Source: a virus (taxonomy: Duplodnaviria > Heunggongvirae > Uroviricota > Caudoviricetes). Taken from it: DNA of 64,000 bases. Positions 1,118 through 31,410 of this stretch are shown here, one piece after another; within the stretch, counting starts at the first letter, position 1; each line of letters opens with the position of its first letter. The stretch is from IMG/VR virus record IMGVR_UViG_3300042400_000593. The stretch is one strand, 5' to 3'. The notes under the pieces are model-generated. The model had not been told where the DNA came from. It worked only from the letters and a program-made list of their open reading frames with translations, and made no database searches. A program made the position numbers and the translations under genes.

Positions 1118-1795
1118 TTATTTGTTTACAATACTCATAAATTCTGCACGAGTAGTTGGATCGTTTTTAAATGCACCACCTAACTTACTAGTAACAGTAG
1201 AACTGCCAGTATCTTCTACACCTCTTGCAGCAACACAATAATGTTTTGCATCAATAACTACTGCAATATTATCAGTGCCTAATATGTATTCTAATGCATG
1301 GAATACTTGTTCGGTTAATCTTTCTTGTACTTGCGGACGTTTTGCAAAGTATTCAACTACACGATTAATTTTGCTTAGTCCAAGTACAACCTCGTTTGGA
1401 ATATAACCAACTGTTGCAAAGCCGTCAATTACAACTCCGTGATGTTCACAATTACTTTGTATGTTTACATTTCTTTCCACAACAATTTCATTGTAGCCCA
1501 TTTTGTTTTTAATAGTAGTACACTTTGGAAAGTTTTCTTCTTTAAGTCCAAAATATATTTCATTTGTGTACATTTTAGCCATTCGATTTGGTGTTTCTGC
1601 TAAACTATCATCTGTTAAGTCCATTCCTAATGTTGACCATATTGTTGTAAATGCGTTTTCAATAATGTCAATTTTTGTTTTATTATCAACTACTAGGGCT
1701 GTATTATTAATCGGAGTTTCGACTCCTTTACTAATTAAATATTCTCTTACTCGTTTACCTAACGCTGGATCTGTTTTAGTTTTATCAAAGCTCAT
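1118..1795 (-). CDS. folE: GTP cyclohydrolase I (FolE type I)
   Basis: Motifs NCEHHGVVIDGFATVGYIP and HYCVAARGV correspond to the FolE zinc/active-site motifs (CEHH ... HxCMxxRGV); size 225 aa. Confidence 0.85.
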   Translation of the reverse strand: MSFDKTKTDPALGKRVREYLISKGVETPINNTALVVDNKTKIDIIENAFTTIWSTLGMDLTDDSLAETPNRMAKMYTNEIYFGLKEENFPKCTTIKNKMGYNEIVVERNVNIQSNCEHHGVVIDGFATVGYIPNEVVLGLSKINRVVEYFAKRPQVQERLTEQVFHALEYILGTDNIAVVIDAKHYCVAARGVEDTGSSTVTSKLGGAFKNDPTTRAEFMSIVNK

Positions 1796-1809: not shown

Positions 1810-2670
1810 TTATATTTGTTTGTGATTTTTAAAAGTAGGTTTATCATGTTTCCAAATTAATCCAATTTGATAGCATTGTGTAGGATTATCGCTAATATCT
1901 TGATTAGTTCGGTATTTTCCTTTAAGTTCACCTTCAAAAATTATTCTCTGTTTAGAAGGTTTATTTAATCTACCATATGTAATATTATAATTGTTTTCTA
2001 AGTAAAAGTCAACATCTTTTTTAGATAAAAAATATTCAACATTGTTAATTATACACCATTTATACCCTTTAGTTGCAGATCTACCATACATGCCATTATT
2101 AGTACCTACTCTTGCCATAGTAGTGTTAGCACCAATTCTTGTTTTAATACCGGTTGTAACAATAATATCATGATGACTATTAGCCTCTTGTAAATCTAAT
2201 AATTTAGATTTCTTAATAATAGTATGTTCTTTGATGTTAGTATTGTATACTGTAAATGTGTCTGTTCTTAGCCCAATGTGCGGTTGTAAGTTACGAACAG
2301 GGTTACTCCTTGCAGTTTGATGGGACACCCACCCTCTCTCACGAATATTTGTTATTTTATAGTTTCTAAATTCTAAAATTAATTTAGTCTCTAATTCTAC
2401 TGCATCTTCTTCAGATAGATTAGTGGCTACTTTAAAAATTATTGGTAATAACTGCAATCTAGTTAATTCTCTAATTGTGTTTAATTTATGTGAATTTTTA
2501 TATTTTCGTGTAGGCCGTGCTTCTTTAAGATGATCAAATAATCGATTATTTTTACCGTAACCTACATAAAATGGTTTAAATAACAGTGAACAAAATGTAG
2601 AAACATATTGACCTGGTGTTCTTGGATCTAAGTATACATAGACATAGTATATATTGTTATTAGATGACAT
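1810..2670 (-). CDS. GIY-YIG homing endonuclease (Seg-like)
   Basis: N-terminal IYYVYVYLDPRTPGQ...PFYVGYGKNNRLFDHL is the GIY-(10-11)-YIG motif. The true start is probably the internal ATG (MSSNNN...) at complement 2668-2670, which has a strong AAGGAG 14 nt upstream; the track start at 2724 lacks an RBS. Confidence 0.75.
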   Translation of the reverse strand: MSSNNNIYYVYVYLDPRTPGQYVSTFCSLLFKPFYVGYGKNNRLFDHLKEARPTRKYKNSHKLNTIRELTRLQLLPIIFKVATNLSEEDAVELETKLILEFRNYKITNIRERGWVSHQTARSNPVRNLQPHIGLRTDTFTVYNTNIKEHTIIKKSKLLDLQEANSHHDIIVTTGIKTRIGANTTMARVGTNNGMYGRSATKGYKWCIINNVEYFLSKKDVDFYLENNYNITYGRLNKPSKQRIIFEGELKGKYRTNQDISDNPTQCYQIGLIWKHDKPTFKNHKQI

Positions 2671-2892
2671 ATAAGATTCCTTACTCCTTACATAATTGAT
2701 TTTTAAAATGGGCATTCCTATCATGATTGCCCATTGTTATTTATTAGTTAAGAGTTCTTTGTCAATGTTTTTAAGTCGTCTTCTAAGTATTCTAGATATT
2801 GTGACAAACCTAACAGCATACGTTGATTGTTTGAATCGCTATGTTTAGCAATATCACGTTTTACTTGTGCAATTTTTTCTTGTAATTCTTCT

Positions 2893-3249
2893 TTAGTTAA
2901 ATCTGTCATTTTTTACCTCCGATCTTGCTATTTCTAAAAACATTTGATATTTTTCGTATGCTGCTTTAACAGTTGGATTAGAATCTCTAACATACATATC
3001 TTCATAATATTTTTTATTCCAGTCTTCGCACTTTTCAGCTTTGTCAATTAACTTTATAAAATCGTTCTCGTGTATTTTAACAGTTAATGACCGTGTAACG
3101 TTTGCTCTTTCGCTTGGTAGGTTTGATCTTGACCAATCTAACGAATAGTTATCACCTGCAGCATAAAATTGTTCAACGTCTATGCTTCGTATACCGTGTT
3201 TCTTAGCTATTGAATGTAGTTCCATTATTTCTTCCAGTAGTTTTCCCAT
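2893..3249 (-). CDS. hypothetical protein (118 aa)
   Basis: ORF track only. Confidence 0.4.
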   Translation of the reverse strand: MGKLLEEIMELHSIAKKHGIRSIDVEQFYAAGDNYSLDWSRSNLPSERANVTRSLTVKIHENDFIKLIDKAEKCEDWNKKYYEDMYVRDSNPTVKAAYEKYQMFLEIARSEVKNDRFN

Positions 3250-3755
3250 GGAAAGTCAATCCAAATCGGATCGTCTCGTTTATCAAATTCTTCAGCACAA
3301 TAATCAACATGTGCATTGCTAGCAGAATTATCAAACACTGTAGCAAATCTTACATTTTTATGCCAAACATCGTGTTTCCATCTTATAGAATCTGGTAAAC
3401 ATAATGATTGCCAATCTTCTTTAATCCAATCGAGTGTTGCACCCGAATCGTTAATATCGTCTACAATTAAAATGTTTTTAGCACGTCCGGTACTTGCTAG
3501 TTCGTCATCAGTAACACCAAATGCATCACAAGCCATCCATGCATTATGTTCATTGTCGTCTGGATGGTCACGTAAACTAACATGTAATGTTAGCATCTTA
3601 ACTCCGAGATACTGACTAAGTAAGTTAGCGGGGATAAGTCCCCCGCGTGTGATTCCGACAATGTAATCTGGTTTCCAATTAGCAGCTTGAACTTGGCGTG
3701 CTATCTCTAATGCGGCACCTTCTAATTGTGCCCAACTATATTTTACTACTTTCAT
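3225..3755 (-). CDS. xanthine-guanine phosphoribosyltransferase-like (Gpt-like, type I PRTase)
   Basis: YIVGITRGGLIPANLL and KNILIVDDINDSGATL align with E. coli Gpt GIIAVSRGGLVPGALL and FIVIDDLVDTGGTAV (PRPP-binding motif); 176 aa versus Gpt 152 aa. Confidence 0.7.
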   Translation of the reverse strand: MKVVKYSWAQLEGAALEIARQVQAANWKPDYIVGITRGGLIPANLLSQYLGVKMLTLHVSLRDHPDDNEHNAWMACDAFGVTDDELASTGRAKNILIVDDINDSGATLDWIKEDWQSLCLPDSIRWKHDVWHKNVRFATVFDNSASNAHVDYCAEEFDKRDDPIWIDFPWENYWKK

Positions 3756-4183
3756 TCGTCGTCCTTTGGTAACATGCTATCCTCATAGCAAATTGCATAA
3801 ATTGTTTTTAAATTTCCGTATGCTTTTTCTAAACCTGGATATTCGTCGCATAACTTCTTAAATGCATCCCATTCTGGAAACGCATCTATAAAAGGTCGTC
3901 CGTTCATTGCAGTTGAGTTACTCCAGCTACCGTTACTACTTAATGTACTACCTCCTATTCCGTTATATGCATAGTAATTACTTGTTAAATTAGTAGCTAT
4001 AGTATTATACCCGTATACACCATTAGAACCTGTGATAGTAATTGTATCACTTGCTGCTGCTGTTCCACTCATAACATTTGACGCCGTGTATGCCGATAAT
4101 GTACTTGCATCGAACGCCGGTATACGAACATGTGCATCTCCATCCATAGTAAATGTAATCGTATCTTTATTTGAATCTATCAT
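3752..4183 (-). CDS. hypothetical protein (143 aa, Ser/Thr/Gly/Asn-rich)
   Basis: ORF track; overlaps neighbours by 4 and 17 nt in operon fashion. Confidence 0.4.
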   Translation of the reverse strand: MIDSNKDTITFTMDGDAHVRIPAFDASTLSAYTASNVMSGTAAASDTITITGSNGVYGYNTIATNLTSNYYAYNGIGGSTLSSNGSWSNSTAMNGRPFIDAFPEWDAFKKLCDEYPGLEKAYGNLKTIYAICYEDSMLPKDDE

Positions 4184-5261
4184 ATAATTTCTCTGCGTTA
4201 AAAAACTCTTTTGTTAAATATTCTGCTTGGGTGTTTACATAATGCGCTATACTATCATAGTTTTCTATATAATAAATAATTTTATTACATAAATCATAAC
4301 TGTGCGTTTCGTAATTTTCGTAACTAATAGACCATTCTGACGGGTATTTAAAATGATACATATACATTTCTTTATAACTTAGTCTATCGGGTACCATTGG
4401 TATAGCACCAAGCAATGCGCCTTCGTAACAACTTATGCCTAGGGTTTCTTGTAAGTTAGCACTAAACACAATCTTTGCTTCGCTTAATAATTTATGATAT
4501 TCGTCTTTAGTTAGCTTCTCGTCTTGGCACACTACAAAATCGTATTGCGGTAATTGCATAGCTAATGATCTAAAAATATCAACTTGTTTTTCTGGAGCAA
4601 CCCTATGCGGAAACAATATTAGATCACGTTTTTCTGAATTTTTATAAGGAGTTAGCGTATCTTCTAAATACTCCATAGGCCAACCTGTTTTTATAATAGA
4701 CCCATCGTCGTATATTTCGTCCCAATCCTCGTCGTACCATGGATTTTCACTTGGATAACCATTTTGTATAACATTGTTAAAAAACATTCTTACGTGAAAC
4801 TCGGTAGCAAAATAGTTATGAGTGTATGCAGTGTACATACTTTTTTCAGCAAGTCTAACCCATGCGTCTTTAATATTACCTAAAAAGTCGTGTGGATCAT
4901 AACTTCCTGCGTGCCATAGACCGTGGAATGTCCAATTTAGATGTTCTAAATCGTTAATGTACTTTAATTGTATAATAGTAGGATTCCATGCATCAGTAAA
5001 TAAGAAATGATCATTAGGAGTAGTCCTGTGATAATTTTTTAAAAATCCAACAAGCTGAGAACTTTTCCATACGTTTGTGTCGACAAAGTTTAAAAATGCA
5101 CCCGGAGTTACATCGGTTGCGTTTTGTTCGCCGTCTATTTGAATTATGTTGTATTTGTCGTTAATATAATTGCTTAGTTGTTTAGGGATATGAGTGTGCC
5201 ATTGTCTAGTATATCTAGTATCTAATGGTTCTACAGGAAATATCCAAATAGTAGGTTTCAT
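4167..5261 (-). CDS. GT-B fold glycosyltransferase (GT4-like)
   Basis: C-terminal ...FSANLQETLGISCYEGALLGAIPMVPD... resembles the EX7E donor-binding motif region of GT4/GT1 retaining glycosyltransferases; 364 aa. Confidence 0.45.
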   Translation of the reverse strand: MKPTIWIFPVEPLDTRYTRQWHTHIPKQLSNYINDKYNIIQIDGEQNATDVTPGAFLNFVDTNVWKSSQLVGFLKNYHRTTPNDHFLFTDAWNPTIIQLKYINDLEHLNWTFHGLWHAGSYDPHDFLGNIKDAWVRLAEKSMYTAYTHNYFATEFHVRMFFNNVIQNGYPSENPWYDEDWDEIYDDGSIIKTGWPMEYLEDTLTPYKNSEKRDLILFPHRVAPEKQVDIFRSLAMQLPQYDFVVCQDEKLTKDEYHKLLSEAKIVFSANLQETLGISCYEGALLGAIPMVPDRLSYKEMYMYHFKYPSEWSISYENYETHSYDLCNKIIYYIENYDSIAHYVNTQAEYLTKEFFNAEKLYDRFK

Positions 5262-5317: not shown

Positions 5318-5566
5318 TTATGATTTTTTATAATTTTTAGGTCTAACACCGTTTGGCCAAGGTTTATTACCTTGATATGGTTTGCGTGGACGTTTACTTG
5401 CTAAGTATGCACCATACGATTTACTATCTTTGCGATATAAATCCGATGGATCAAATTTACGTAACTCAATTCTGCAAAAGTCATGAAATGCTTCTAAATC
5501 TTCAAAGATTTTAACAACATCTGGACGTGATTCGAAGTATGAGAATGTTTTGTAATTTTTAGCCAT
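5318..5566 (-). CDS. hypothetical basic protein (82 aa)
   Basis: ORF track. Confidence 0.35.
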   Translation of the reverse strand: MAKNYKTFSYFESRPDVVKIFEDLEAFHDFCRIELRKFDPSDLYRKDSKSYGAYLASKRPRKPYQGNKPWPNGVRPKNYKKS

Positions 5567-5858: not shown

Positions 5859-6115
5859 TTGTTATATTACAGTATAGATCATTACTTATCATTTCGCAAC
5901 TTTTGTTATCTAATGATAATGTTAATACGTAGTGTTTCATATTAGTTGATATTTATTATTTTAGTGAAAGTATAAATACAATATTAGTGAGATAGAACTA
6001 TGCCTAAACTCAAAACCCTTAATAGTAATTATACATGTTATTTGTGCGGTTGTCAAGCATTTTACATAAGTATTAATTCCAAAGTCTAAAAATCGATCTA
6101 AACGTATAGCTTGTT

Positions 6116-6493
6116 CTATTTCATTAGATGACCTGCGTCAGTTGGCTGGTATGTAACAATGCCATCAGATTCACCATCTTCAGATACACAGACTGTATAG
6201 TGCCTATCTCCATATTTAGGCAATAAATGATTAGTTAAAATATCACTAGCAATCATTTCGCATGATTTGTAATTTTGATCACCTGCAGTGATAAAATCAG
6301 TTAATGCCCATTTAACCAAAAAAAACTCTAATTCTCTATCTAAGTGATTAACAGAAATAGTTACTTCGATTTTAAAAATGTGACGATGTATATTTTCAAG
6401 AAATGCAATTTTAGAATCAATCAATCCTGCATTTGGGTAACAGTGCATACCTTCAAACTCTGTTCGAATTTTAATAAATGTTTGTAATTTCAT
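6116..6493 (-). CDS. QueD/6-pyruvoyl-tetrahydropterin synthase-like protein (divergent paralogue)
   Basis: TEFEGMHCYP ... NIHRHIFKIEV parallels the QueD FEAAHRL ... LHGHSFMVRLE arrangement, but the CxxxHGH box is degenerate; 125 aa. Confidence 0.45.
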   Translation of the reverse strand: MKLQTFIKIRTEFEGMHCYPNAGLIDSKIAFLENIHRHIFKIEVTISVNHLDRELEFFLVKWALTDFITAGDQNYKSCEMIASDILTNHLLPKYGDRHYTVCVSEDGESDGIVTYQPTDAGHLMK

Positions 6494-7017
6494 TTAATTA
6501 TCTTGTCGTCGTTATAGTCGGTCCAACTAGTAAACACATCTTCATTTTGCAAAACTTTTAAGTTATGTGTCCACACGCCGGGGTTAGTTGCGTTAAAATC
6601 TATGTCATCTAATTTAACCATTGTATTATAACTCCAATCTTTAATATTTGCAACCGGAAATCTAATTTGAGGAATAAAATTTTCATATGAACATAAATTA
6701 GTTTTATTATTAAAATCATTCATTGCTGTAACCGGAATATCTAATGAACAGTGTTTGCCTAATTTTAAAAAGTGCTCAATAATGTTATTCCAGTTGAGCC
6801 AGGTACCTGGTGTGTTTGGATTAAAACTGTGGTTTGCACCAAAGAAGATATGTGTAATATCTTCTTCAGTATCTAACCGGTGATGTATTGCTTCTGTAGT
6901 ATGAGCACCAACAACAAATAATGTTTTTAAACCATATGCTGGAGTATGCTCTACTTCGGTACCAACAAAAAACTTAGCAGTGTTAGTAGTTATATTGTTA
7001 TTATACTGTCTATTCAT
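6490..7017 (-). CDS. hypothetical protein (175 aa), translationally coupled to the DpdA-like gene
   Basis: Its start overlaps the upstream TGT-like ORF stop by 8 nt and its stop overlaps the QueD-like start; His-rich (HTTEAIHHRLD, ITHIFFGANH); no known motif recognised. Confidence 0.45.
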   Translation of the reverse strand: MNRQYNNNITTNTAKFFVGTEVEHTPAYGLKTLFVVGAHTTEAIHHRLDTEEDITHIFFGANHSFNPNTPGTWLNWNNIIEHFLKLGKHCSLDIPVTAMNDFNNKTNLCSYENFIPQIRFPVANIKDWSYNTMVKLDDIDFNATNPGVWTHNLKVLQNEDVFTSWTDYNDDKIIK

Positions 7018-8731
7018 CTTTAATGCTATCTTCTAGGGTAAGTAAAGTGTCTTCTTCTTCTTCAGAAAATTCAAATGCCGTCGGATCGACATTATCCTCA
7101 TCTATGTCGTTAGGATCTATATCTTCAAGTGTCCAAAACTCATTAAACTTTGTATCAGCATTGATTGTTTTCTTGCCACAATTACCACGTGTACCAGGAA
7201 TATCAATCCATAATTTGCTATATCTACTAATTAATTTCAATGCAGAACGCTTAGTTTTACTGCTAATGATTTTATCAATTATATCGCTAACATAAACTGG
7301 ATTAAATTTTTCATCAACTAACATATATGGCAAAATATTGTTATCAAATGTTTGATTTGCTCTTTGTACAGCATCAATATGACTCCATACATTATGCCCC
7401 ATTAAAATAGCGTAACTAAAACTATCCCAACTTGTTCTACCGACTTTGTTAATTTTATTCGTACTGCCCATAGTAATCCAATATTTAGGATCATTTAAGT
7501 ATAGTGGGTTTTTAAATAAGTCTTCATGATCAATGCCATCATTGTCTACTTCTGTCCAGTTAGGATCACCTGCACCGTAGATACAAATATCTTTTATTTG
7601 TACTTGATCAATAAGTGGACTTGGATTAAACACTTTAAAAATACCATCATCGATAACCGCGTCTTTAAACAGTCTAGTATCATATGCGTATTTTTTATTA
7701 TCAACACTCGGGACCATTCGATACACCCATTTAGATCTATCTTCTAATTCTGTAGTAATGTAAACCTGACCATTTGCTGTAGCCAAAAACGGACTAGCAC
7801 AATCATAACTAATAGTAAAGCTAGGATTAACATATTTACGAACTGCTCGTTGAATTATAGTTAGTAAACATGCCCATTCTAATTTACTAGTTCCTAAGAA
7901 ATGCATCCAGTCGTGCTGGCCTTCTTGAAGCATGTTATCAAATTTTAAACCAATAATGCGTTTAAGTACTAACTCGGCATCGCACATGTTTTGTCCACCC
8001 ATTGCCCAGCCATTAAATGCTTTATCACCGTAGATCTTAGTATCGCAAAACTTTTTCATACTTTGATACCATTTTTCTGCATCTTTGTGTGTTTCGCCTT
8101 GTAATACATTTAAGAATTTACAAGCACCTGTGCGATTTTGAATAAAGTATTCATTGTTAATAAATGTACCTTTAACTGCATCTTTGTAATTTCTAATACC
8201 TGTTGCTTTTCTACCAGCCGGCATACGTGCTACCCACGCAGGAATATCAAGACACATACCGTAATCCATTAACTCGTCCATCCATCGCAGTACTTGTTCA
8301 CGTTTCTTTTGTGCTTTAGGACAAGTAGGATCTTTCCAATCAGCTGGCCATACACCTTTCCCTATTTGGAAGCCTCCAGAGTCACCTAACACCCAACTAG
8401 TACTTCTATCTCTATTACGGAACATGTCTTCACTTTCGTCAAACTTATCTAAATCTAAGTTTGCATGTCCAGCTGAGTACAAGCACCATTTATAATAAAA
8501 TTCACCTTTTTCAGGTTCTAAGTAGTTAAGTCCCTCTACACCTGCTTTAAATGATGTTGGAATACGTAACGGATCAACATAATTACCATAACGTTGTTTA
8601 CCAACAAATGTTGAGTAAAACCCTGACGTTGCAGGCAAAAACACGGCATAATCCTGTTGTGTTGCTGTTAAGTTTCTATTCATGTTTTTTCCATATATAT
8701 GTTTTATTTCCGCAGTCCCAGATTCTATCAT
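7010..8731 (-). CDS. dpdA: tRNA-guanine-transglycosylase-family DNA transglycosylase (DpdA-like)
   Basis: VLGDSGGFQ matches the TGT catalytic-Asp motif LxDSGGFQ; NGWAMGG matches G(F/Y)AIGG; MHFLGTS matches YLMGVGTP. 573 aa. An alternative start is Met17 (complement 8681-8683), 2 nt after the upstream stop. Confidence 0.75.
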   Translation of the reverse strand: MIESGTAEIKHIYGKNMNRNLTATQQDYAVFLPATSGFYSTFVGKQRYGNYVDPLRIPTSFKAGVEGLNYLEPEKGEFYYKWCLYSAGHANLDLDKFDESEDMFRNRDRSTSWVLGDSGGFQIGKGVWPADWKDPTCPKAQKKREQVLRWMDELMDYGMCLDIPAWVARMPAGRKATGIRNYKDAVKGTFINNEYFIQNRTGACKFLNVLQGETHKDAEKWYQSMKKFCDTKIYGDKAFNGWAMGGQNMCDAELVLKRIIGLKFDNMLQEGQHDWMHFLGTSKLEWACLLTIIQRAVRKYVNPSFTISYDCASPFLATANGQVYITTELEDRSKWVYRMVPSVDNKKYAYDTRLFKDAVIDDGIFKVFNPSPLIDQVQIKDICIYGAGDPNWTEVDNDGIDHEDLFKNPLYLNDPKYWITMGSTNKINKVGRTSWDSFSYAILMGHNVWSHIDAVQRANQTFDNNILPYMLVDEKFNPVYVSDIIDKIISSKTKRSALKLISRYSKLWIDIPGTRGNCGKKTINADTKFNEFWTLEDIDPNDIDEDNVDPTAFEFSEEEEDTLLTLEDSIKDE

Positions 8732-10301
8732 AATTATTATTTTTCATATTTTCCCATTCGGTTTTTGATAAATCAACAACTTCTAATAATTTAGATAATT
8801 TATGTTTTTGAAATTTAATTCTACTCATTATGCGAGACGGATCACTATTTAAAAAATACCAGTAATTTGGATCAGTATCGTGTATAAATTCAAAACCAAG
8901 TTGTGTATATAAATTACCAGTTGACCATCTTCTATCTGCATATGATACAATACTACTCGGATTATGTAATTTTATAAAATGTTTAATTAATTTACTACCT
9001 GCACCAACTACTGTAGTATTCAATTTATTACAAAAGCGAATCAATTCCCACTGTGCAGCACTTGTATATCTAGCTTTTGCAAATGTAGCTAACGATACTA
9101 ATTCACCATCAAACATTGCGCCAATATTTACACTTGACGAGCAATCACCTTGAATATGATTTTCATTTAAGAAGTTACGTTTATCTGTAGTTGATACGTC
9201 TATTATACTACAGTTTCGTGCAAAAATCTTGGTTGATTTATTCAATTTATGCAATAATTTTGATTTTATAATATCAGTTTGCGTGTTCCATTCATAATCC
9301 CATATTTGTATAAGTTGAATATTTTGCTGTTCACATGCAACAGTCTTTGATACATGGTATTGTTTAGATTTTCCGTGAAGTTCGCTATGCCAAAAACTTC
9401 CATTAAACTCAATTGCAAGATTAAAATCCGGTAAAAAAATGTCAAGCTCACGTGGTGCAATGATTGTTCTATCATTTCTAATTATGTTTTGAGTGTAATT
9501 AGATAAAAAGTCAACTAAATTAGTTTCTCCGGCCGAAACATTAAATCGTTGTATATCAATACCAGCTGCAACCAATCTTTTAAGTATCGGCGTTGGAGAA
9601 CACCCTAGTTCTTCTGCAATTTGACTACATGGTTTCTTTAATGTTACATGCTGTTCTATAAGAAACTCAAGATTGTGCAATTTATCAATATTCTCATTAG
9701 TTAAATGAATATGTTTATTTGACGAAACACCAAACTTTTCAATACAAGTATTGTGACGTTTATCAATTACGTCATCCCAATTTCTATTAAGAGATGACTG
9801 ACTAATTTTTAACTTAATCATATCATTTTTAGCTGCATTATCCACACCGTACTTTTCTAAATTTCGTTGTTTGATTTTTTCTTTAATTTCTAAAGATTTA
9901 AATACGTTATCAACACCGTACTTTTCCATTGTAGCAGCATTTCGAGTTTCTCTAATAGTTTCATTGTGCATAGGATGACCGCCATACTTAGCTTGATTAG
10001 TTTGAGATTTTTTTAATAATATTGCAGGATCAGTGCCCATGCATTTAGCAGAGCACCATTCCGAATATGATTTTAAACTTTTAACAAACTTAGTAGATAG
10101 CTTTCCGCACCGGGTACAGGTTGGTACGTCAATCGTGTCATTAATAACGTGCCACAATCGTTGATGCGGAGTAGCAGTTTCGCTTAGAAAACTTGTAATG
10201 TCAATAAACTCAATAACATGTTCATCTAATATTGTACGTTTAGCAAATAATTCATTAGCAGTTGATTGCAATTGTATAGAATTATTCAACAGCTTTGTCA
10301 T
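8676..10301 (-). CDS. multidomain protein: N-terminal Cys cluster, three 22-aa K-Y-G-V-D-N repeats, Vsr/DUF559-like endonuclease core, C-terminal GNAT-like region
   Basis: ELDIFLPDFNLAIEFNGSFWHSELHG resembles the Vsr / EDxHD nuclease core (..AIE.DG.FWH..); C-terminal TTVVGAGSKL...LYTQLGFEF is GNAT-like; repeats KYGGHP../KYGVDNVF../KYGVDNAA../KFGVSS.. Confidence 0.4.
   Translation of the reverse strand: MTKLLNNSIQLQSTANELFAKRTILDEHVIEFIDITSFLSETATPHQRLWHVINDTIDVPTCTRCGKLSTKFVKSLKSYSEWCSAKCMGTDPAILLKKSQTNQAKYGGHPMHNETIRETRNAATMEKYGVDNVFKSLEIKEKIKQRNLEKYGVDNAAKNDMIKLKISQSSLNRNWDDVIDKRHNTCIEKFGVSSNKHIHLTNENIDKLHNLEFLIEQHVTLKKPCSQIAEELGCSPTPILKRLVAAGIDIQRFNVSAGETNLVDFLSNYTQNIIRNDRTIIAPRELDIFLPDFNLAIEFNGSFWHSELHGKSKQYHVSKTVACEQQNIQLIQIWDYEWNTQTDIIKSKLLHKLNKSTKIFARNCSIIDVSTTDKRNFLNENHIQGDCSSSVNIGAMFDGELVSLATFAKARYTSAAQWELIRFCNKLNTTVVGAGSKLIKHFIKLHNPSSIVSYADRRWSTGNLYTQLGFEFIHDTDPNYWYFLNSDPSRIMSRIKFQKHKLSKLLEVVDLSKTEWENMKNNNYDRIWDCGNKTYIWKKHE
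9701..9989 (-). repeat. in-frame 22-aa K-[YF]-G-V-x-N repeats (3-4 copies) inside the 541-aa gene
   Basis: KYGGHPMHNETIRETRNAATME / KYGVDNVFKSLEIKEKIKQRNLE / KYGVDNAAKNDMIKLKISQSSL / KFGVSSNKHIHL. Confidence 0.5.
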
Positions 10302-11440: not shown

Positions 11441-11469
11441 ATTATAATGTATTTGTAGTGGGTTGTCAA
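11441..11469 (-). promoter_or_regulatory. sigma70-consensus promoter upstream of the clamp gene
   Basis: Minus strand reads TTGACA-N17-TATAAT followed by AGGAG and ATG at 11420. Confidence 0.5.
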
Positions 11470-11476
11470 TTTTATT

Positions 11477-14137
11477 TTAATCAAAATCAAATAAATTGTT
11501 AAATGTGTTTTTGTCAGATGTGTTAACTAGTTTCCAGTTAAGAATTCCGATTAAGTTATCTAACTTGTTATCAATAATTGTTTGTTCCATTTCATTATGA
11601 TCAAACGGTAAGTCTTTAAACCATTGCGGTAATCGTAGTTCGTCTACTGGATATGCAACACTTGTAAACCCCAACGGATTTGGTTTAAGTTTACATACAA
11701 TTACTTTTGCACCGTCTGTAATAGACATCGAATATTTGTCACTGTACATACGTTTTAAAGTATTCCAGTTTATACTTGCTCTTACATGCCCGGGCATATT
11801 AGTTTTACCTTGTTTATCTTCTTTTGTAGCATATGAAGTAATACTGTTAGCACGTTTAGGTGAACCTTTTTCCCACCCAGGTCTAGCTTTAAATAGTAAC
11901 CTAAATTCTGTAATGTAATCTAATACAGTATCTTCACTTTCGCCTGCTAGAACCATTTGTAACACTTGTGATAAAAAATCTTGAATAAATTCCGGTGTAT
12001 CACTACGTTTTAAATCTAATCCCATAGCTTTAATTTCACCATTTTTACCATTAGTGTCTTTACGTTTACCTTCTTTATCGTATACTAATACTGCATAACG
12101 CTTTTTAGTAATAAACAACGATTTACTTCCGACGATCTCACGTCCGGCTTTAATAACTTCGCCACGCGATTTAGGACAATGGAATGCATCTAACATAAAC
12201 TGCTGGAATGTGCTATTAACTTGATCACTAATTTGATCATATAACTGAACAATAGTATCTTTAGACCATGGTAAACTACCATTATCGATATCACGTTTGA
12301 GTGTATTGTATGCACTAAAGTAACAGGAGTCAGTATCACCGTAAATAATAGCTTTACCTGTGTGATTATAATCACCGGTAATGATTTCATTTACTTTTGC
12401 AGCCATATGTTTAGCAATTTGGCGACCTACTAGCGTAGTAGATTGTCCAATGCGCTTATCAAAGAACCTACAACCTGGATTAAGAATAGCACCGTATAAA
12501 CTATTTAGGTTAATCTTCTTAACTAACTGTCTTTTATCCCAGTATTCTTCTTCAATTTTATTACCTGCGTTAATAGCTTCTTTTAGTTTTTTCTGCATAT
12601 CTTTACGTTCTGCATACCATCGTTTAAGTAAACCAGGAATAACTCCTTCTACTTCAACGGAAAAGATAGTACCATTAGCAGATAACACCCATGGTTGATT
12701 GCTTTCAAACACTAACCTGTATACTTCGGCAGCACTTAGTACATCTGTATCACCATTTTCCCAGTCAACTACTATATCAGTACCTATTTCTTCATTCATA
12801 ACAGCAGTATATTCAAGAGTACCAAATAATCCTTCCCATGCAGCGGCAAATGATTTACCTTTTGCTAGTTGCATAGAAATAAATTCATCAGTTGCAACAG
12901 GTCTTAACTGACCTACAATAGTCTCCGGACCCATATTTAATGCTCTAATAGCACTAGGATACAGAGAGTTGATATCTAGTGATCCGACCCAGTCATGAAT
13001 TCCTTCTTTTGGATATGCAACATACGCACCTGCAGCTTGAATAGGATCTTCTCTACGTCTATTAGGTACAACAAATCCTCTGTTATGTGCTTCGTTAATA
13101 ATAGCTTGTTCTGTTACAGCAACAGCACCCATAGTAGTTTGTAGTAATACTGTATTTTCATGTGCAAGTGTGTTAGCTAAGTCAATAAATTTTAGTTTTT
13201 TGTCTAAACTATCTAATAGCATGGTATCTTGTCTATTATATTCAATAAATGTTTTAAAGTCATTGTTATATAATTGATCAAGGGTGCCTTCGTATTGTGT
13301 TTTACGGTCGCCTAGTTCATATTCTGCAATAGCATCGAGTCTAAAACTATGTCTTTCTTCATATGTGTACTTTTGATATAGCTGTAAGCTATCTAAATGT
13401 ACACGTCCTACAAAGTCATATGTTACTGATGCTTTACCGTATTTTTCATATTCACGTCTTTTTGGTAATTGATCGAATAAGCAGAACCTACGTGTATCAT
13501 CTTTTGATAATACTTTAGTAACACGATTAACTGTATATGGTATATCAAATCCTTCACTATTCCAACCACTTAAAATGTCAGCATCTTCTATTAAATTAAG
13601 AAATGTGTCTAATAATTCAGCTTCAGTTTTAAATAAAAACGTATTAGGAAACTCTTTTACTTGTTCTTCTGCTTGCTCCATAGTTAATGTCTTTGGAGGA
13701 ATAGCTAAACAGATAAGTGTTTCTAACCATTGTAAGTGTACAGCAATCGCAGTAATGGGCATAAACGCATCATCGGGCGATGCATAACCACGTTCTGGAT
13801 CAAAGTCGACCTCGATATCAAAAAACGCAACGTTTAGTTTAGGCGCGTCGTGGTTAAGATAGTGTTCTGATAAACATGCAAATATTGGATTAATATCTGC
13901 TTCAAATGTTTTACTTGTGCTATGTATAGAAAGTTCTTTTCTATACTCTTTTGTATTTCTACAAACAATTTTTGATACGGGGTCTCTGTAGATTGATTGA
14001 TATTTCCCTTTCGAGTCTTTATAATATAATGTGTGCTTTACGGGAATGTCTTTAAACTCCCGTTCGCCTTTTGAGTTTCTTTCTACAATCTTAATAACAT
14101 CGTTATTGCGATCAAAGTATCCATCTATATAACTCAT
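11477..14137 (-). CDS. family B DNA polymerase (T4 gp43-like) with 3'-5' exonuclease domain
   Basis: Exo I FFDIEVDFDPE; motif A LDINSLYPSAI; motif C IYGDTDSCYFS; 886 aa. Confidence 0.95.
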   Translation of the reverse strand: MSYIDGYFDRNNDVIKIVERNSKGEREFKDIPVKHTLYYKDSKGKYQSIYRDPVSKIVCRNTKEYRKELSIHSTSKTFEADINPIFACLSEHYLNHDAPKLNVAFFDIEVDFDPERGYASPDDAFMPITAIAVHLQWLETLICLAIPPKTLTMEQAEEQVKEFPNTFLFKTEAELLDTFLNLIEDADILSGWNSEGFDIPYTVNRVTKVLSKDDTRRFCLFDQLPKRREYEKYGKASVTYDFVGRVHLDSLQLYQKYTYEERHSFRLDAIAEYELGDRKTQYEGTLDQLYNNDFKTFIEYNRQDTMLLDSLDKKLKFIDLANTLAHENTVLLQTTMGAVAVTEQAIINEAHNRGFVVPNRRREDPIQAAGAYVAYPKEGIHDWVGSLDINSLYPSAIRALNMGPETIVGQLRPVATDEFISMQLAKGKSFAAAWEGLFGTLEYTAVMNEEIGTDIVVDWENGDTDVLSAAEVYRLVFESNQPWVLSANGTIFSVEVEGVIPGLLKRWYAERKDMQKKLKEAINAGNKIEEEYWDKRQLVKKINLNSLYGAILNPGCRFFDKRIGQSTTLVGRQIAKHMAAKVNEIITGDYNHTGKAIIYGDTDSCYFSAYNTLKRDIDNGSLPWSKDTIVQLYDQISDQVNSTFQQFMLDAFHCPKSRGEVIKAGREIVGSKSLFITKKRYAVLVYDKEGKRKDTNGKNGEIKAMGLDLKRSDTPEFIQDFLSQVLQMVLAGESEDTVLDYITEFRLLFKARPGWEKGSPKRANSITSYATKEDKQGKTNMPGHVRASINWNTLKRMYSDKYSMSITDGAKVIVCKLKPNPLGFTSVAYPVDELRLPQWFKDLPFDHNEMEQTIIDNKLDNLIGILNWKLVNTSDKNTFNNLFDFD

Positions 14138-30877: not shown

Positions 30878-30906
30878 AGCAGCTGACTAGTCAGCTGCTA
30901 TTTTTA
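30878..30906. terminator. bidirectional terminator hairpin between the convergent phoH and dCMP-deaminase genes
   Basis: tAGCAGCTGAC ta GTCAGCTGCTatttttat: 10-bp perfect stem, 2-nt loop, T-run; overlaps the deaminase stop. Confidence 0.55.
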
Positions 30907-31410
30907 TAGTTTTTCAACAGTTATACCACATTTTTCTAAAAATTCAAGTCCGGCAGTACTACGATAAGTTTCTTTGTAGAACACTTTAGTAATTCCGGTC
31001 TGATATATTCCTTTAGCGCACTCTATACATGGAGCATGCGTAATAAACATAAAAGCACCTTTACCAGATTCAGATGAACTTGCTAATTTCATTAGCGCAT
31101 TCATTTCTGCGTGTATCACTTCTGATTTTGTTTTTAGTGCATATCGCTGGTTATCATCTCTAACATACGGAAAATTTATTGCGAACTCTTCTGGGTCACA
31201 ATCATAATCGCCATGATTTTCATCCGGGTAAATGACACGCTCACAACAGTTGTCCCATCCGGTGGGAGTACCGTTGTAGCCAAGACTAATAATACGATCA
31301 TCTTTAACTACAACCGCGCCAACTTTAAGCTTAATTGCGGAACTAAGTTCCGCAAATGTATAAGCTGTTTTCATAAAAGCATTTTTAAACTTTTGTTTCA
31401 TGATCATCAA
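30904..31410 (-). CDS. dCMP deaminase (CDA-fold zinc deaminase)
   Basis: HAEMNAL (HAExNA) and PCIECAK (PCxxCA) zinc-binding motifs; GYNGTP; 168 aa. Confidence 0.8.
   Translation of the reverse strand: MMIMKQKFKNAFMKTAYTFAELSSAIKLKVGAVVVKDDRIISLGYNGTPTGWDNCCERVIYPDENHGDYDCDPEEFAINFPYVRDDNQRYALKTKSEVIHAEMNALMKLASSSESGKGAFMFITHAPCIECAKGIYQTGITKVFYKETYRSTAGLEFLEKCGITVEKL

Follow-up and report, generated by a model that had tools for sequence, protein, structure and literature searches.

A purine phosphoribosyltransferase gene as a conserved part of phage 7-deazaguanine gene sets

A gene at positions 3225..3755, on the minus strand of a 64,000-nucleotide stretch of viral DNA (Caudoviricetes, IMG/VR record IMGVR_UViG_3300042400_000593; the whole stretch is called the window below), encodes what is, judged from its sequence, a real and intact type I purine phosphoribosyltransferase (PRT). 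Comparison with other phages reveals a dedicated purine PRT as a part of phage deazaguanine gene sets that recurs and is strongly conserved, and that the papers we covered had not discussed. As originally predicted, the gene sits inside a DNA-modification island, with FolE at 1118-1795 on one side and a DpdL-type protein (6116-6493) and a DpdA-like protein of the TGT fold (7010-8731) on the other; all features described below that lie between positions 1 and 10301 are on the same strand. The enzyme bears on the question of how some phages swap every guanine for a 7-deazaguanine, and we favour, with moderate confidence, the view that it recycles the guanine released by DpdA to GMP.

An intact type I purine phosphoribosyltransferase

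The open reading frame (ORF) begins with ATG and encodes 176 residues. It matches Pfam PF00156 (Pribosyltran) with 60.2 bits (E 2e-16; gathering cut-off 26.3) and PHROG 8995, ‘phosphoribosyl transferase’, with an E value of 1.9e-16. It is in frame with the rest of its operon, sharing 4 nt at its start with the stop of the upstream ORF 3752-4183 and running at its 3' end into ORF 2893-3249. The original prediction described the product as a Gpt-like xanthine/guanine PRT. The part of this that stands is membership of the type I purine PRTs (PF00156), so that ‘Gpt-like’ holds at the superfamily level only. The top NCBIfam match, the xanthine PRT model NF006613, covers residues 4-113 only and, at 58.3 bits, falls well short of the equivalog cut-off of 138 bits, and Lys115 of Gpt is replaced by Asn. 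When the PDB was searched with a profile of the PRT family, the best match was the P. horikoshii purine PRT 1VDM (5e-23), the second-best was S. solfataricus GpT-2 (4Z1O, 6e-19), and GpT-1 of the same species (4TRB) gave 7e-18, all three aligning over the full length with the hood region included, while E. coli XGPRT ranked after these archaeal PRTs (1e-12) and aligned over the N-terminal part only. By these sequence comparisons the protein is not a Gpt orthologue.

Alignment with Gpt and the archaeal enzymes locates the functional parts of the window PRT: the pyrophosphate (PPi) loop T-R37-G-G (TRGG), the phosphoribosyl pyrophosphate (PRPP) binding motif ILIVDDINDSGAT, numbered ILIVD99-D100-IN-D103-SGAT107, and a C-terminal PWE. 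We counted residue conservation over 195 unique close homologues. R37, G38, G39, R62, D99, N102, D103, G105, T107, N143, W165 and P169 are invariant (195/195), and D63, D100 and E171 are each kept in 194 of the 195. The aromatic residue that would stack on the base is the invariant W165, followed at position 166 by I, L or V (W134-I135 in Gpt). D103, also without exception, corresponds to Asp92 of Gpt and to Asp137 of human HGPRT, which touches purine N7 in solved HGPRT-GMP complexes (PMC2228302, Table 2). The lysine that binds O6 and N7 (Lys165 in the human enzyme, Lys115 in Gpt, the lysine of the ‘KP’ in 1VDM and 4Z1O) is absent, and its place is taken by Asn143 in all 195 homologues. Since the catalytic residues are invariant across this set, the PRT is apparently an active enzyme under purifying selection.

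The window PRT thus has in common with E. coli Gpt (PDB 1A95-1A98, 1NUL) the type I fold, the RGG loop, the two acidic PRPP residues and the Asp that follows them (D92/D103), as well as the stacking Trp-Ile pair (W134-I135 = W165-I166) and the C-terminal PWE/PWD. It departs from Gpt in the exchange of Lys115 for Asn, in the flexible loop, which changes from SSYD to S-L-R62-D63, and in length, 176 aa compared with 152 aa, with two insertions at about residues 70-92 and 113-131. The archaeal-type PRTs 1VDM, 4Z1O (the HGXPRT-like GpT-2) and 4TRB (the APRT GpT-1) are the best solved full-length relatives, but unlike the window PRT they keep the ‘KP’ lysine, have F-Y in the flexible loop and serve housekeeping functions, their genes having no deazaguanine neighbours.

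Conservation in related viral loci

A protein search with the window PRT returned 4,882 relatives, and the best 120 of these 4,882 are 52-88% identical to it and all metagenomic; the metagenomic contigs that carry close relatives of the PRT have the same gene order as the window. For related viral loci we kept 80 IMG/VR loci from 535 confirmed matches (44-58% identity), many of the loci being truncated. In every one of them (80/80) the PRT gene lies inside a fixed module with the order DNA polymerase (Pol), a 245-aa protein, DpdA-like, a 175-aa protein, DpdL, an 82-aa protein, a glycosyltransferase (GT), PRT, FolE, QueE-like and a 5'-3' exonuclease. Searches with tblastn detected the QueE-like gene in 69 of the loci, FolE in 58 and the DpdA-like gene in 36, and found QueC in none of the 80. 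As the 80 loci form one clade, their agreement speaks for conservation and not for independent origin; the independence comes from six other phage lineages.

PRT genes in other phage lineages

The distant phage homologues are 24-34% identical to the window PRT. Pseudomonas phage PA5oct carries it (gp163) in the same module as the window, and in the Synechococcus cyanophage BUCT-ZZ01 (UTS52039) the order is QueE-PRT-hypothetical protein-QueD-FolE, with DpdL and GT homologues nearby. Flavobacterium phage immuto_2-6A (gp211; immuto below) has QueD-QueE-..-PRT-FolE-..-DpdA-DpdN-kinase-QueF, Brevundimonas phages, MaInes (MAINES_00780) among them, have ribonucleotide reductase (RNR)-dNMP kinase-FolE-PRT, and Campylobacter Firehammerviruses such as CP220 have PRT-hypothetical protein-radical SAM. 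In the Cellulophaga phages phiST (CGPG_00045), phi13:1 and phi19:2 the PRT gene adjoins RNR, away from the deazaguanine cluster of phiST. The annotated PRTs of phiST, immuto, CP220, PA5oct, MaInes and BUCT-ZZ01 are homologous to the window PRT and of the same Asp type at the N7 position, but they are shorter (131-161 aa) and mostly keep the lysine, and those of immuto and PA5oct have no RD flexible loop. Two residue markers that we considered did not hold across these enzymes. The exchange of Lys115 for Asn cannot serve as a marker of a non-guanine substrate, as phiST, MaInes, immuto and VpKK5 keep Lys and PA5oct has neither residue, and the Arg62-Asp63 loop is not a universal signature, as the immuto and PA5oct copies are without it.

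The PRT is also found fused to FolE, as the N-terminal part of a 300-aa protein, in Vibrio phages like VpKK5 and in siphophages of Stenotrophomonas, Sphingomonas and, in some cases, Pseudomonas. In Vibrio phage VpKK5 (gp32, 6998-7900 of locus L143) and in a Stenotrophomonas phage (gp47, 5754-6647 of locus L144) the fusion is annotated ‘GTP cyclohydrolase’, and the clusters of both are of the preQ0 type, with the order QueE-QueC-QueD-[PRT-FolE]-DpdA. The fused PRT domains have intact PRGG, DDIIDSG, VDK and WVVFPWE motifs. They differ from the window PRT in being minimal domains of about 125 aa joined to GTP cyclohydrolase I, in clusters that contain QueC.

Every phage with a PRT that we examined also has a DpdA-type gene, and all bona fide phage PRT matches examined carry 7-deazaguanine genes. 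A candidate for a PRT phage without them, the unverified ‘Bacteriophage sp.’ record MT835497, was discarded as bacterial on account of its BCCT transporter and NAD-binding neighbours. A strict partnership of PRT with DpdL was likewise abandoned, there being no PRT in the stretches examined around the DpdL genes of ACP17 and Phosso. Replacement of G is complete (100%) in three described cases, phiST (dDG), immuto (fdPreQ1) and CP220 (dADG) (Cui et al., 2023, PMC10516641), and all three of these groups carry the PRT.

The term ‘phosphoribosyl’ occurs 0 times in either of two papers on these modifications (Hutinet 2019, PMC6884629; Cui et al., 2023), and the jumbo-phage survey of Iyer et al. reports the deazaguanine system of PA5oct with no PRT tied to it. 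We found no relevant literature linking 7-deazaguanine, phage and PRPP or phosphoribosyltransferase; Crippen 2019, which may mention the CP220 PRT, lies outside this coverage. The GenBank record F379 labels the CP220 PRT ‘purine phosphoribosyltransferase / queuosine biosynthesis protein’.

Cellular relatives and the residue at purine N7

In a search of cellular genomes, one for each species, no relative exceeds 34% identity to the window PRT, save for one 53% match on a 5.5-kb contig of a metagenome-assembled genome that carries the phage module. In eight marine Bacteroidota/Marinimicrobia loci (L093, 7992-9073; L094-L099; L105) the PRT gene overlaps the start of a YhhQ/Vut_1 transporter gene by 4 nt, and these YhhQ-coupled PRTs, the closest cellular relatives, have three features of the phage enzyme: the RD loop, DDIND[ST]G and the Asn. 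Members of the YhhQ family are known preQ0/preQ1 importers. The gene pairs suggest, by their arrangement, a system of coupled uptake and phosphoribosylation.

In four further cellular loci the PRT is linked to QueC. The arrangements are FolE-QueD-QueE-PRT-QueC-kinase-PLP decarboxylase-deaminase-Ham1 (L106, 6076-12281), Nudix-QueC-PRT-dTMP-kinase-like-radical SAM-DegT (L117, 6139-10684), YhhQ-QueC-PRT-kinase-radical SAM-DegT (L119, 6775-11132) and a PRT fusion followed by QueC (L132, 6453-8617); genes resembling nucleoside monophosphate (NMP) kinases are part of three of the four arrangements. It is in exactly these four loci that Gly replaces the N7-contacting Asp (DDIIGSG and similar). The other archaeal and bacterial PRTs compared, those without Que-gene context, have Asp, with the exception of Ala in L135, a short contig. 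From their gene content the QueC-linked bacterial operons resemble pathways to 7-deazapurine nucleotides or nucleosides, here outside Actinomycetota. The Gly signature derived here, provisionally DDIxGSG, is absent from the window PRT, which reads DDINDSG, and every phage copy compared is of the Asp type (the window, BUCT-ZZ01, phiST, MaInes, PA5oct, immuto, CP220 and the VpKK5 and Stenotrophomonas fusions).

Possible roles of the enzyme

By well-established chemistry, base exchange of the TGT type expels one guanine for each base inserted and FolE uses up one GTP for each base made. The substrate and cycle that we infer for the PRT connect these two ends of the pathway. FolE, QueD and QueE would convert one GTP to one 7-carboxy-7-deazaguanine (CDG), which in the window phage DpdL would probably trim to 7-deazaguanine; the DpdA-like transglycosylase would then put 7-deazaguanine into DNA and free one guanine. 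The PRT would join this guanine with PRPP to give GMP, and host kinases would carry GMP on to GTP, the substrate of FolE, closing the cycle. Removal of guanine would also take away a competitor of deazaguanine at the transglycosylase, so that the exchange would be pushed towards completion. The original prediction had proposed such recycling of guanine to GMP, and it remains the role that we favour, holding it at about an even balance, for five reasons: the N7 Asp is kept in all phage copies, as opposed to Gly in the four QueC-linked cellular PRTs; one PRT family serves four end products (dDG, dADG, fdPreQ1 and the dPreQ0 type), which have only guanine release and GTP use in common; the PRT can be fused to FolE; this fusion occurs in Queuovirinae-like phages, a member of whose subfamily (iggy) modifies its DNA after replication; and a transglycosylase always co-occurs with the PRT. 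Were this correct, the PRT would define a cycle from guanine through GMP and GTP to deazaguanine, maybe needed for complete exchange, and would be an evident candidate for the part lacking in heterologous reconstitution.

Several points weigh against guanine recycling. Gpt or Hpt is already present in many hosts, which makes the need for a phage copy an argument from flux. The lysine that binds O6 and N7 has become an invariant Asn in the clade of the window, and recognition of guanine is by this residue pattern not guaranteed. The Asp/Gly signature derives from four cellular examples only, with TubE and ToyH outside the comparison, and the coupling of the closest cellular relatives to YhhQ might mean that the substrate is a deazaguanine. 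A nucleotide-level route would agree better with the MazG-like NTP pyrophosphatase encoded in the phiST cluster and with the NMP kinases found close to the PRT in immuto and MaInes. Finally, four PRT queries gave no match in DpdA1 phages such as 9g and CAjan, and phages of this kind reach 25-32% replacement (PMC10516641).

The nucleotide-level route, in which the modified base reaches DNA through the polymerase, was also part of the original prediction, and here we regard it as a tentative alternative, less probable than recycling. The PRT would act as do TubE (tubercidin) and ToyH (toyocamycin), joining CDG (or 7-deazaguanine, or ADG) with PRPP to a 7-deazaguanine ribonucleotide, which kinases and RNR would turn into a dNTP for the polymerase. 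The precedent extends to the gene context: TubE and ToyH, like the phage PRT, are encoded with FolE, QueD and QueE homologues (FolE/QueD/QueE-type genes in the window and its relatives), and TubE itself is a CDG-specific PRT (CDG + PRPP) from a cluster without QueC, in which decarboxylation comes later, on the nucleotide (PMC6112128). QueC is also absent from the window module and from all 80 related loci; the phage DpdL would on this view remove the carboxylate from the nucleotide, the part that TubF plays after TubE, and complete G replacement, seen in three phage groups that all carry the PRT, would be explained. The authors of the TubE study aligned their enzyme to 4Z1O (PMC6112128), a structure of the same subfamily and the second-best solved relative of the phage PRT; this is the only sequence link between the two, and an indirect one. 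Observations on the phages themselves point the same way. Formation of dDG was not reconstituted with DpdL and DpdA, and other enzymes may be needed (Cui et al., PMC10516641); ADG nucleoside occurs in the cytoplasm of CP220-infected cells, as cited in the same paper; and a route by modified dGTP and polymerase has been proposed for Campylobacter phages (Hutinet 2019, PMC6884629, citing Crippen 2019). The NMP kinases beside the cluster in immuto and MaInes, the MazG-like gene of phiST, the QueC and kinase operons of cellular relatives and the YhhQ linkage of the closest ones are in keeping with this route, and the exchange of Lys for Asn at the base-binding position, together with the invariant Arg62-Asp63, hints at altered base recognition. 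On the other hand, free nucleosides are what the TubE and ToyH clusters produce, and they encode no transglycosylase; in the phages an enzyme of the TGT fold accompanies the PRT in every case and would be superfluous on this route. The phage copies keep the N7 Asp, which is Gly in cellular PRTs with a clear deazapurine context, and the C7 carboxylate of CDG would abut Asp103. Nor is the fusion to FolE in Queuovirinae-like phages expected on this route: phage iggy, of that subfamily, modifies a GA motif after replication (PMC10484667), and since the modification is motif-specific and post-replicative the PRT could not serve a polymerase route in the fusion phages. In the literature the polymerase route dates from 2019 (Hutinet 2019, PMC6884629) and base exchange by DpdA3 from 2023, when all phage 7-deazaguanine modifications were described as post-replicative (Cui et al., PMC10516641). 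A TubE-like activity would overturn that statement and reopen the pre-replicative model: phiST, immuto, CP220 and, by extension, the jumbo-phage clade of the window would build their DNA from a pool of 7-deaza-dGTP, and the TGT-like DpdA3 and DpdA-like proteins would have a different or auxiliary role.

Two other explanations appear improbable. The enzyme could be a generic auxiliary of purine salvage, supplying nucleotides for a very large genome, with its position in the island an accident. It does have the fold and catalytic residues of ordinary purine-salvage PRTs, and jumbo phages are rich in genes of nucleotide metabolism, such as the dCMP deaminase at 30904-31410 in the window. Such a role is hard to reconcile with a position fixed in 80 of 80 diverged loci (44-58% identity), with the association with FolE, QueD, QueE and DpdA in at least six unrelated phage lineages, the FolE fusion included, and with the 7-deazaguanine genes present in all bona fide phage matches examined. 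At least as doubtful is action on some different base or on a small molecule that the island makes, such as a glycosylated intermediate or one derived from a pterin, produced with the GT-B fold protein described below, or action of the PRT together with the DpdA-like protein on nucleotides and not on DNA. That the GT-B protein is the best-conserved of the module and has a tetrahydrobiopterin glucosyltransferase among its structural neighbours agrees with this, as does the fact that the role of the DpdA-like protein in this clade is a prediction and that DpdA3 failed in E. coli (Cui et al., PMC10516641). Positive evidence for such a substrate is lacking; purine enzymes make up this subfamily of the type I PRTs, and the window PRT has a canonical stacking Trp and canonical motifs for PRPP and PPi. 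The cultured phages PA5oct, phiST, immuto, CP220 and VpKK5 make the choice between guanine recycling and its alternatives directly testable.

The surrounding module and the base it would make

The gene upstream of the PRT, 3752..4183, encodes a 143-aa protein of unassigned function with no Pfam, NCBIfam or PHROG match and a homologue in 8 of the 80 related loci; the downstream ORF, 2893..3249 (118 aa), is also unassigned and without a match in these databases. FolE (1118..1795), a GTP cyclohydrolase I, which performs the first step of 7-deazaguanine synthesis, is identified by PF01227 (197 bits) and NF006824 (298 bits, cut-off 202). In the relatives FolE is followed by a QueE-like radical-SAM gene, at which point the window ends in a homing-endonuclease-like HNH fragment (1-430). 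A 149-aa ORF after FolE was considered as QueD and rejected, having no PTPS match and no CxxxHGH motif.

The T-fold gene at 6116..6493 is not QueD; it is DpdL, a proposed CDG decarboxylase, on the evidence of its motif LENIHRHIF and a phmmer match to phiST DpdL (CGPG_00067; E 5.7e-13), and it has no PTPS Pfam match. The DpdL signature LxxxHRHxF is contrasted with the CxxxHGH of QueD by Cui et al. (2023, PMC10516641). Neither QueC nor a canonical QueD was found in the 64-kb window, and the gene content, with both absent, makes CDG or 7-deazaguanine the probable base, in line with phiST, rather than preQ0 or preQ1.

The 573-aa protein at 7010..8731 has no Pfam match (TGT included) and no PDB match by sequence, but contains the motif GDSGGFQ, and its AlphaFold2 (AF2) model, of moderate confidence (pLDDT 71, pTM 0.72), is of the TGT fold: every one of the top 50 Foldseek matches in the PDB is a TGT or QTRT1 structure (E 2e-7, probability 1.0). 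The label ‘DpdA-like guanine transglycosylase’ is justified by this motif and by structural matches of the model to TGT enzymes only. Between this gene and DpdL lies a conserved 175-aa protein (6490..7017) with no Pfam or PDB sequence match and a homologue in 39 of the 80 loci. Its invariant residues include G19, E21, E23, H56, D93, K135 and D137-D138, and the Phosso homologue was labelled ‘glycosylase’ by its depositors.

The 364-aa protein at 4167..5261 is a glycosyltransferase of the GT-B fold (AF2 pLDDT 87). Foldseek matches of its model in the PDB are led by glycogen synthase, BshA and MshA (E 1e-9), with the tetrahydrobiopterin glucosyltransferase at rank 15. It is the best-conserved protein of the module (74% mean column identity) and has a homologue in 48 of the 80 loci; a glycosylated deazaguanine or pterin is possible as its product. 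PDB profile searches with alignments of the 364-aa, 175-aa and DpdA-like proteins returned nothing useful. GT-B homologues adjoin DpdA-like or DpdL genes in PA5oct (gp167), Phosso and BUCT-ZZ01. A small conserved ORF of 82 aa at 5318..5566 has no Pfam match and a homologue in 31 of the 80 loci.

The module is interrupted by a 541-aa DUF7487 protein (8676-10301) that resembles homing endonucleases, and a GIY-YIG homing-endonuclease-like ORF (1810..2724; PF22945, 51.5 bits) stands between the PRT sub-operon and FolE. Some of the three homing-endonuclease-like ORFs (1-430, 1810-2724 and 8676-10301) are missing from related contigs.

The host phage

The original prediction placed the window in a T4-like phage, which the DNA polymerase contradicts: the protein, encoded at 11477-14137, shares 42-50% identity with its counterparts in Sinorhizobium phage Phosso, Agrobacterium phage Atu_ph07, Asteriusvirus-type coliphages and Vibrio phage 2.275.O. 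The window also encodes ClpB, DnaJ, PhoH and the dCMP deaminase mentioned above. By these sequence relationships the window comes from a jumbo phage akin to PA5oct, Phosso and Atu_ph07, and not from a classical T4-like phage. A megablast search of 50,697 phage records with the first 12 kb as query gave no match, and thus no near-identical phage among them, which was taken to mean an uncultured source phage. The syntenic jumbo relative Vibrio phage 2.275.O (MG592671) carries a DpdA-like gene and, after it, QueF, YhhQ, QueC, a Gat-like gene and FolE, and the stretch examined contains no PRT; its island is, by gene content, a preQ1-type variant of the window island.

Upstream of the sub-operon that holds the PRT, at 6028..6056, is a sigma-70-like promoter sequence with 12 of 12 consensus positions. 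Promoter-like sites are overall no commoner in the window than expected by chance, so that this one is a candidate only. A further site with 12 of 12 positions of the sigma-70 consensus lies at 11441-11469, again on the minus, coding strand.

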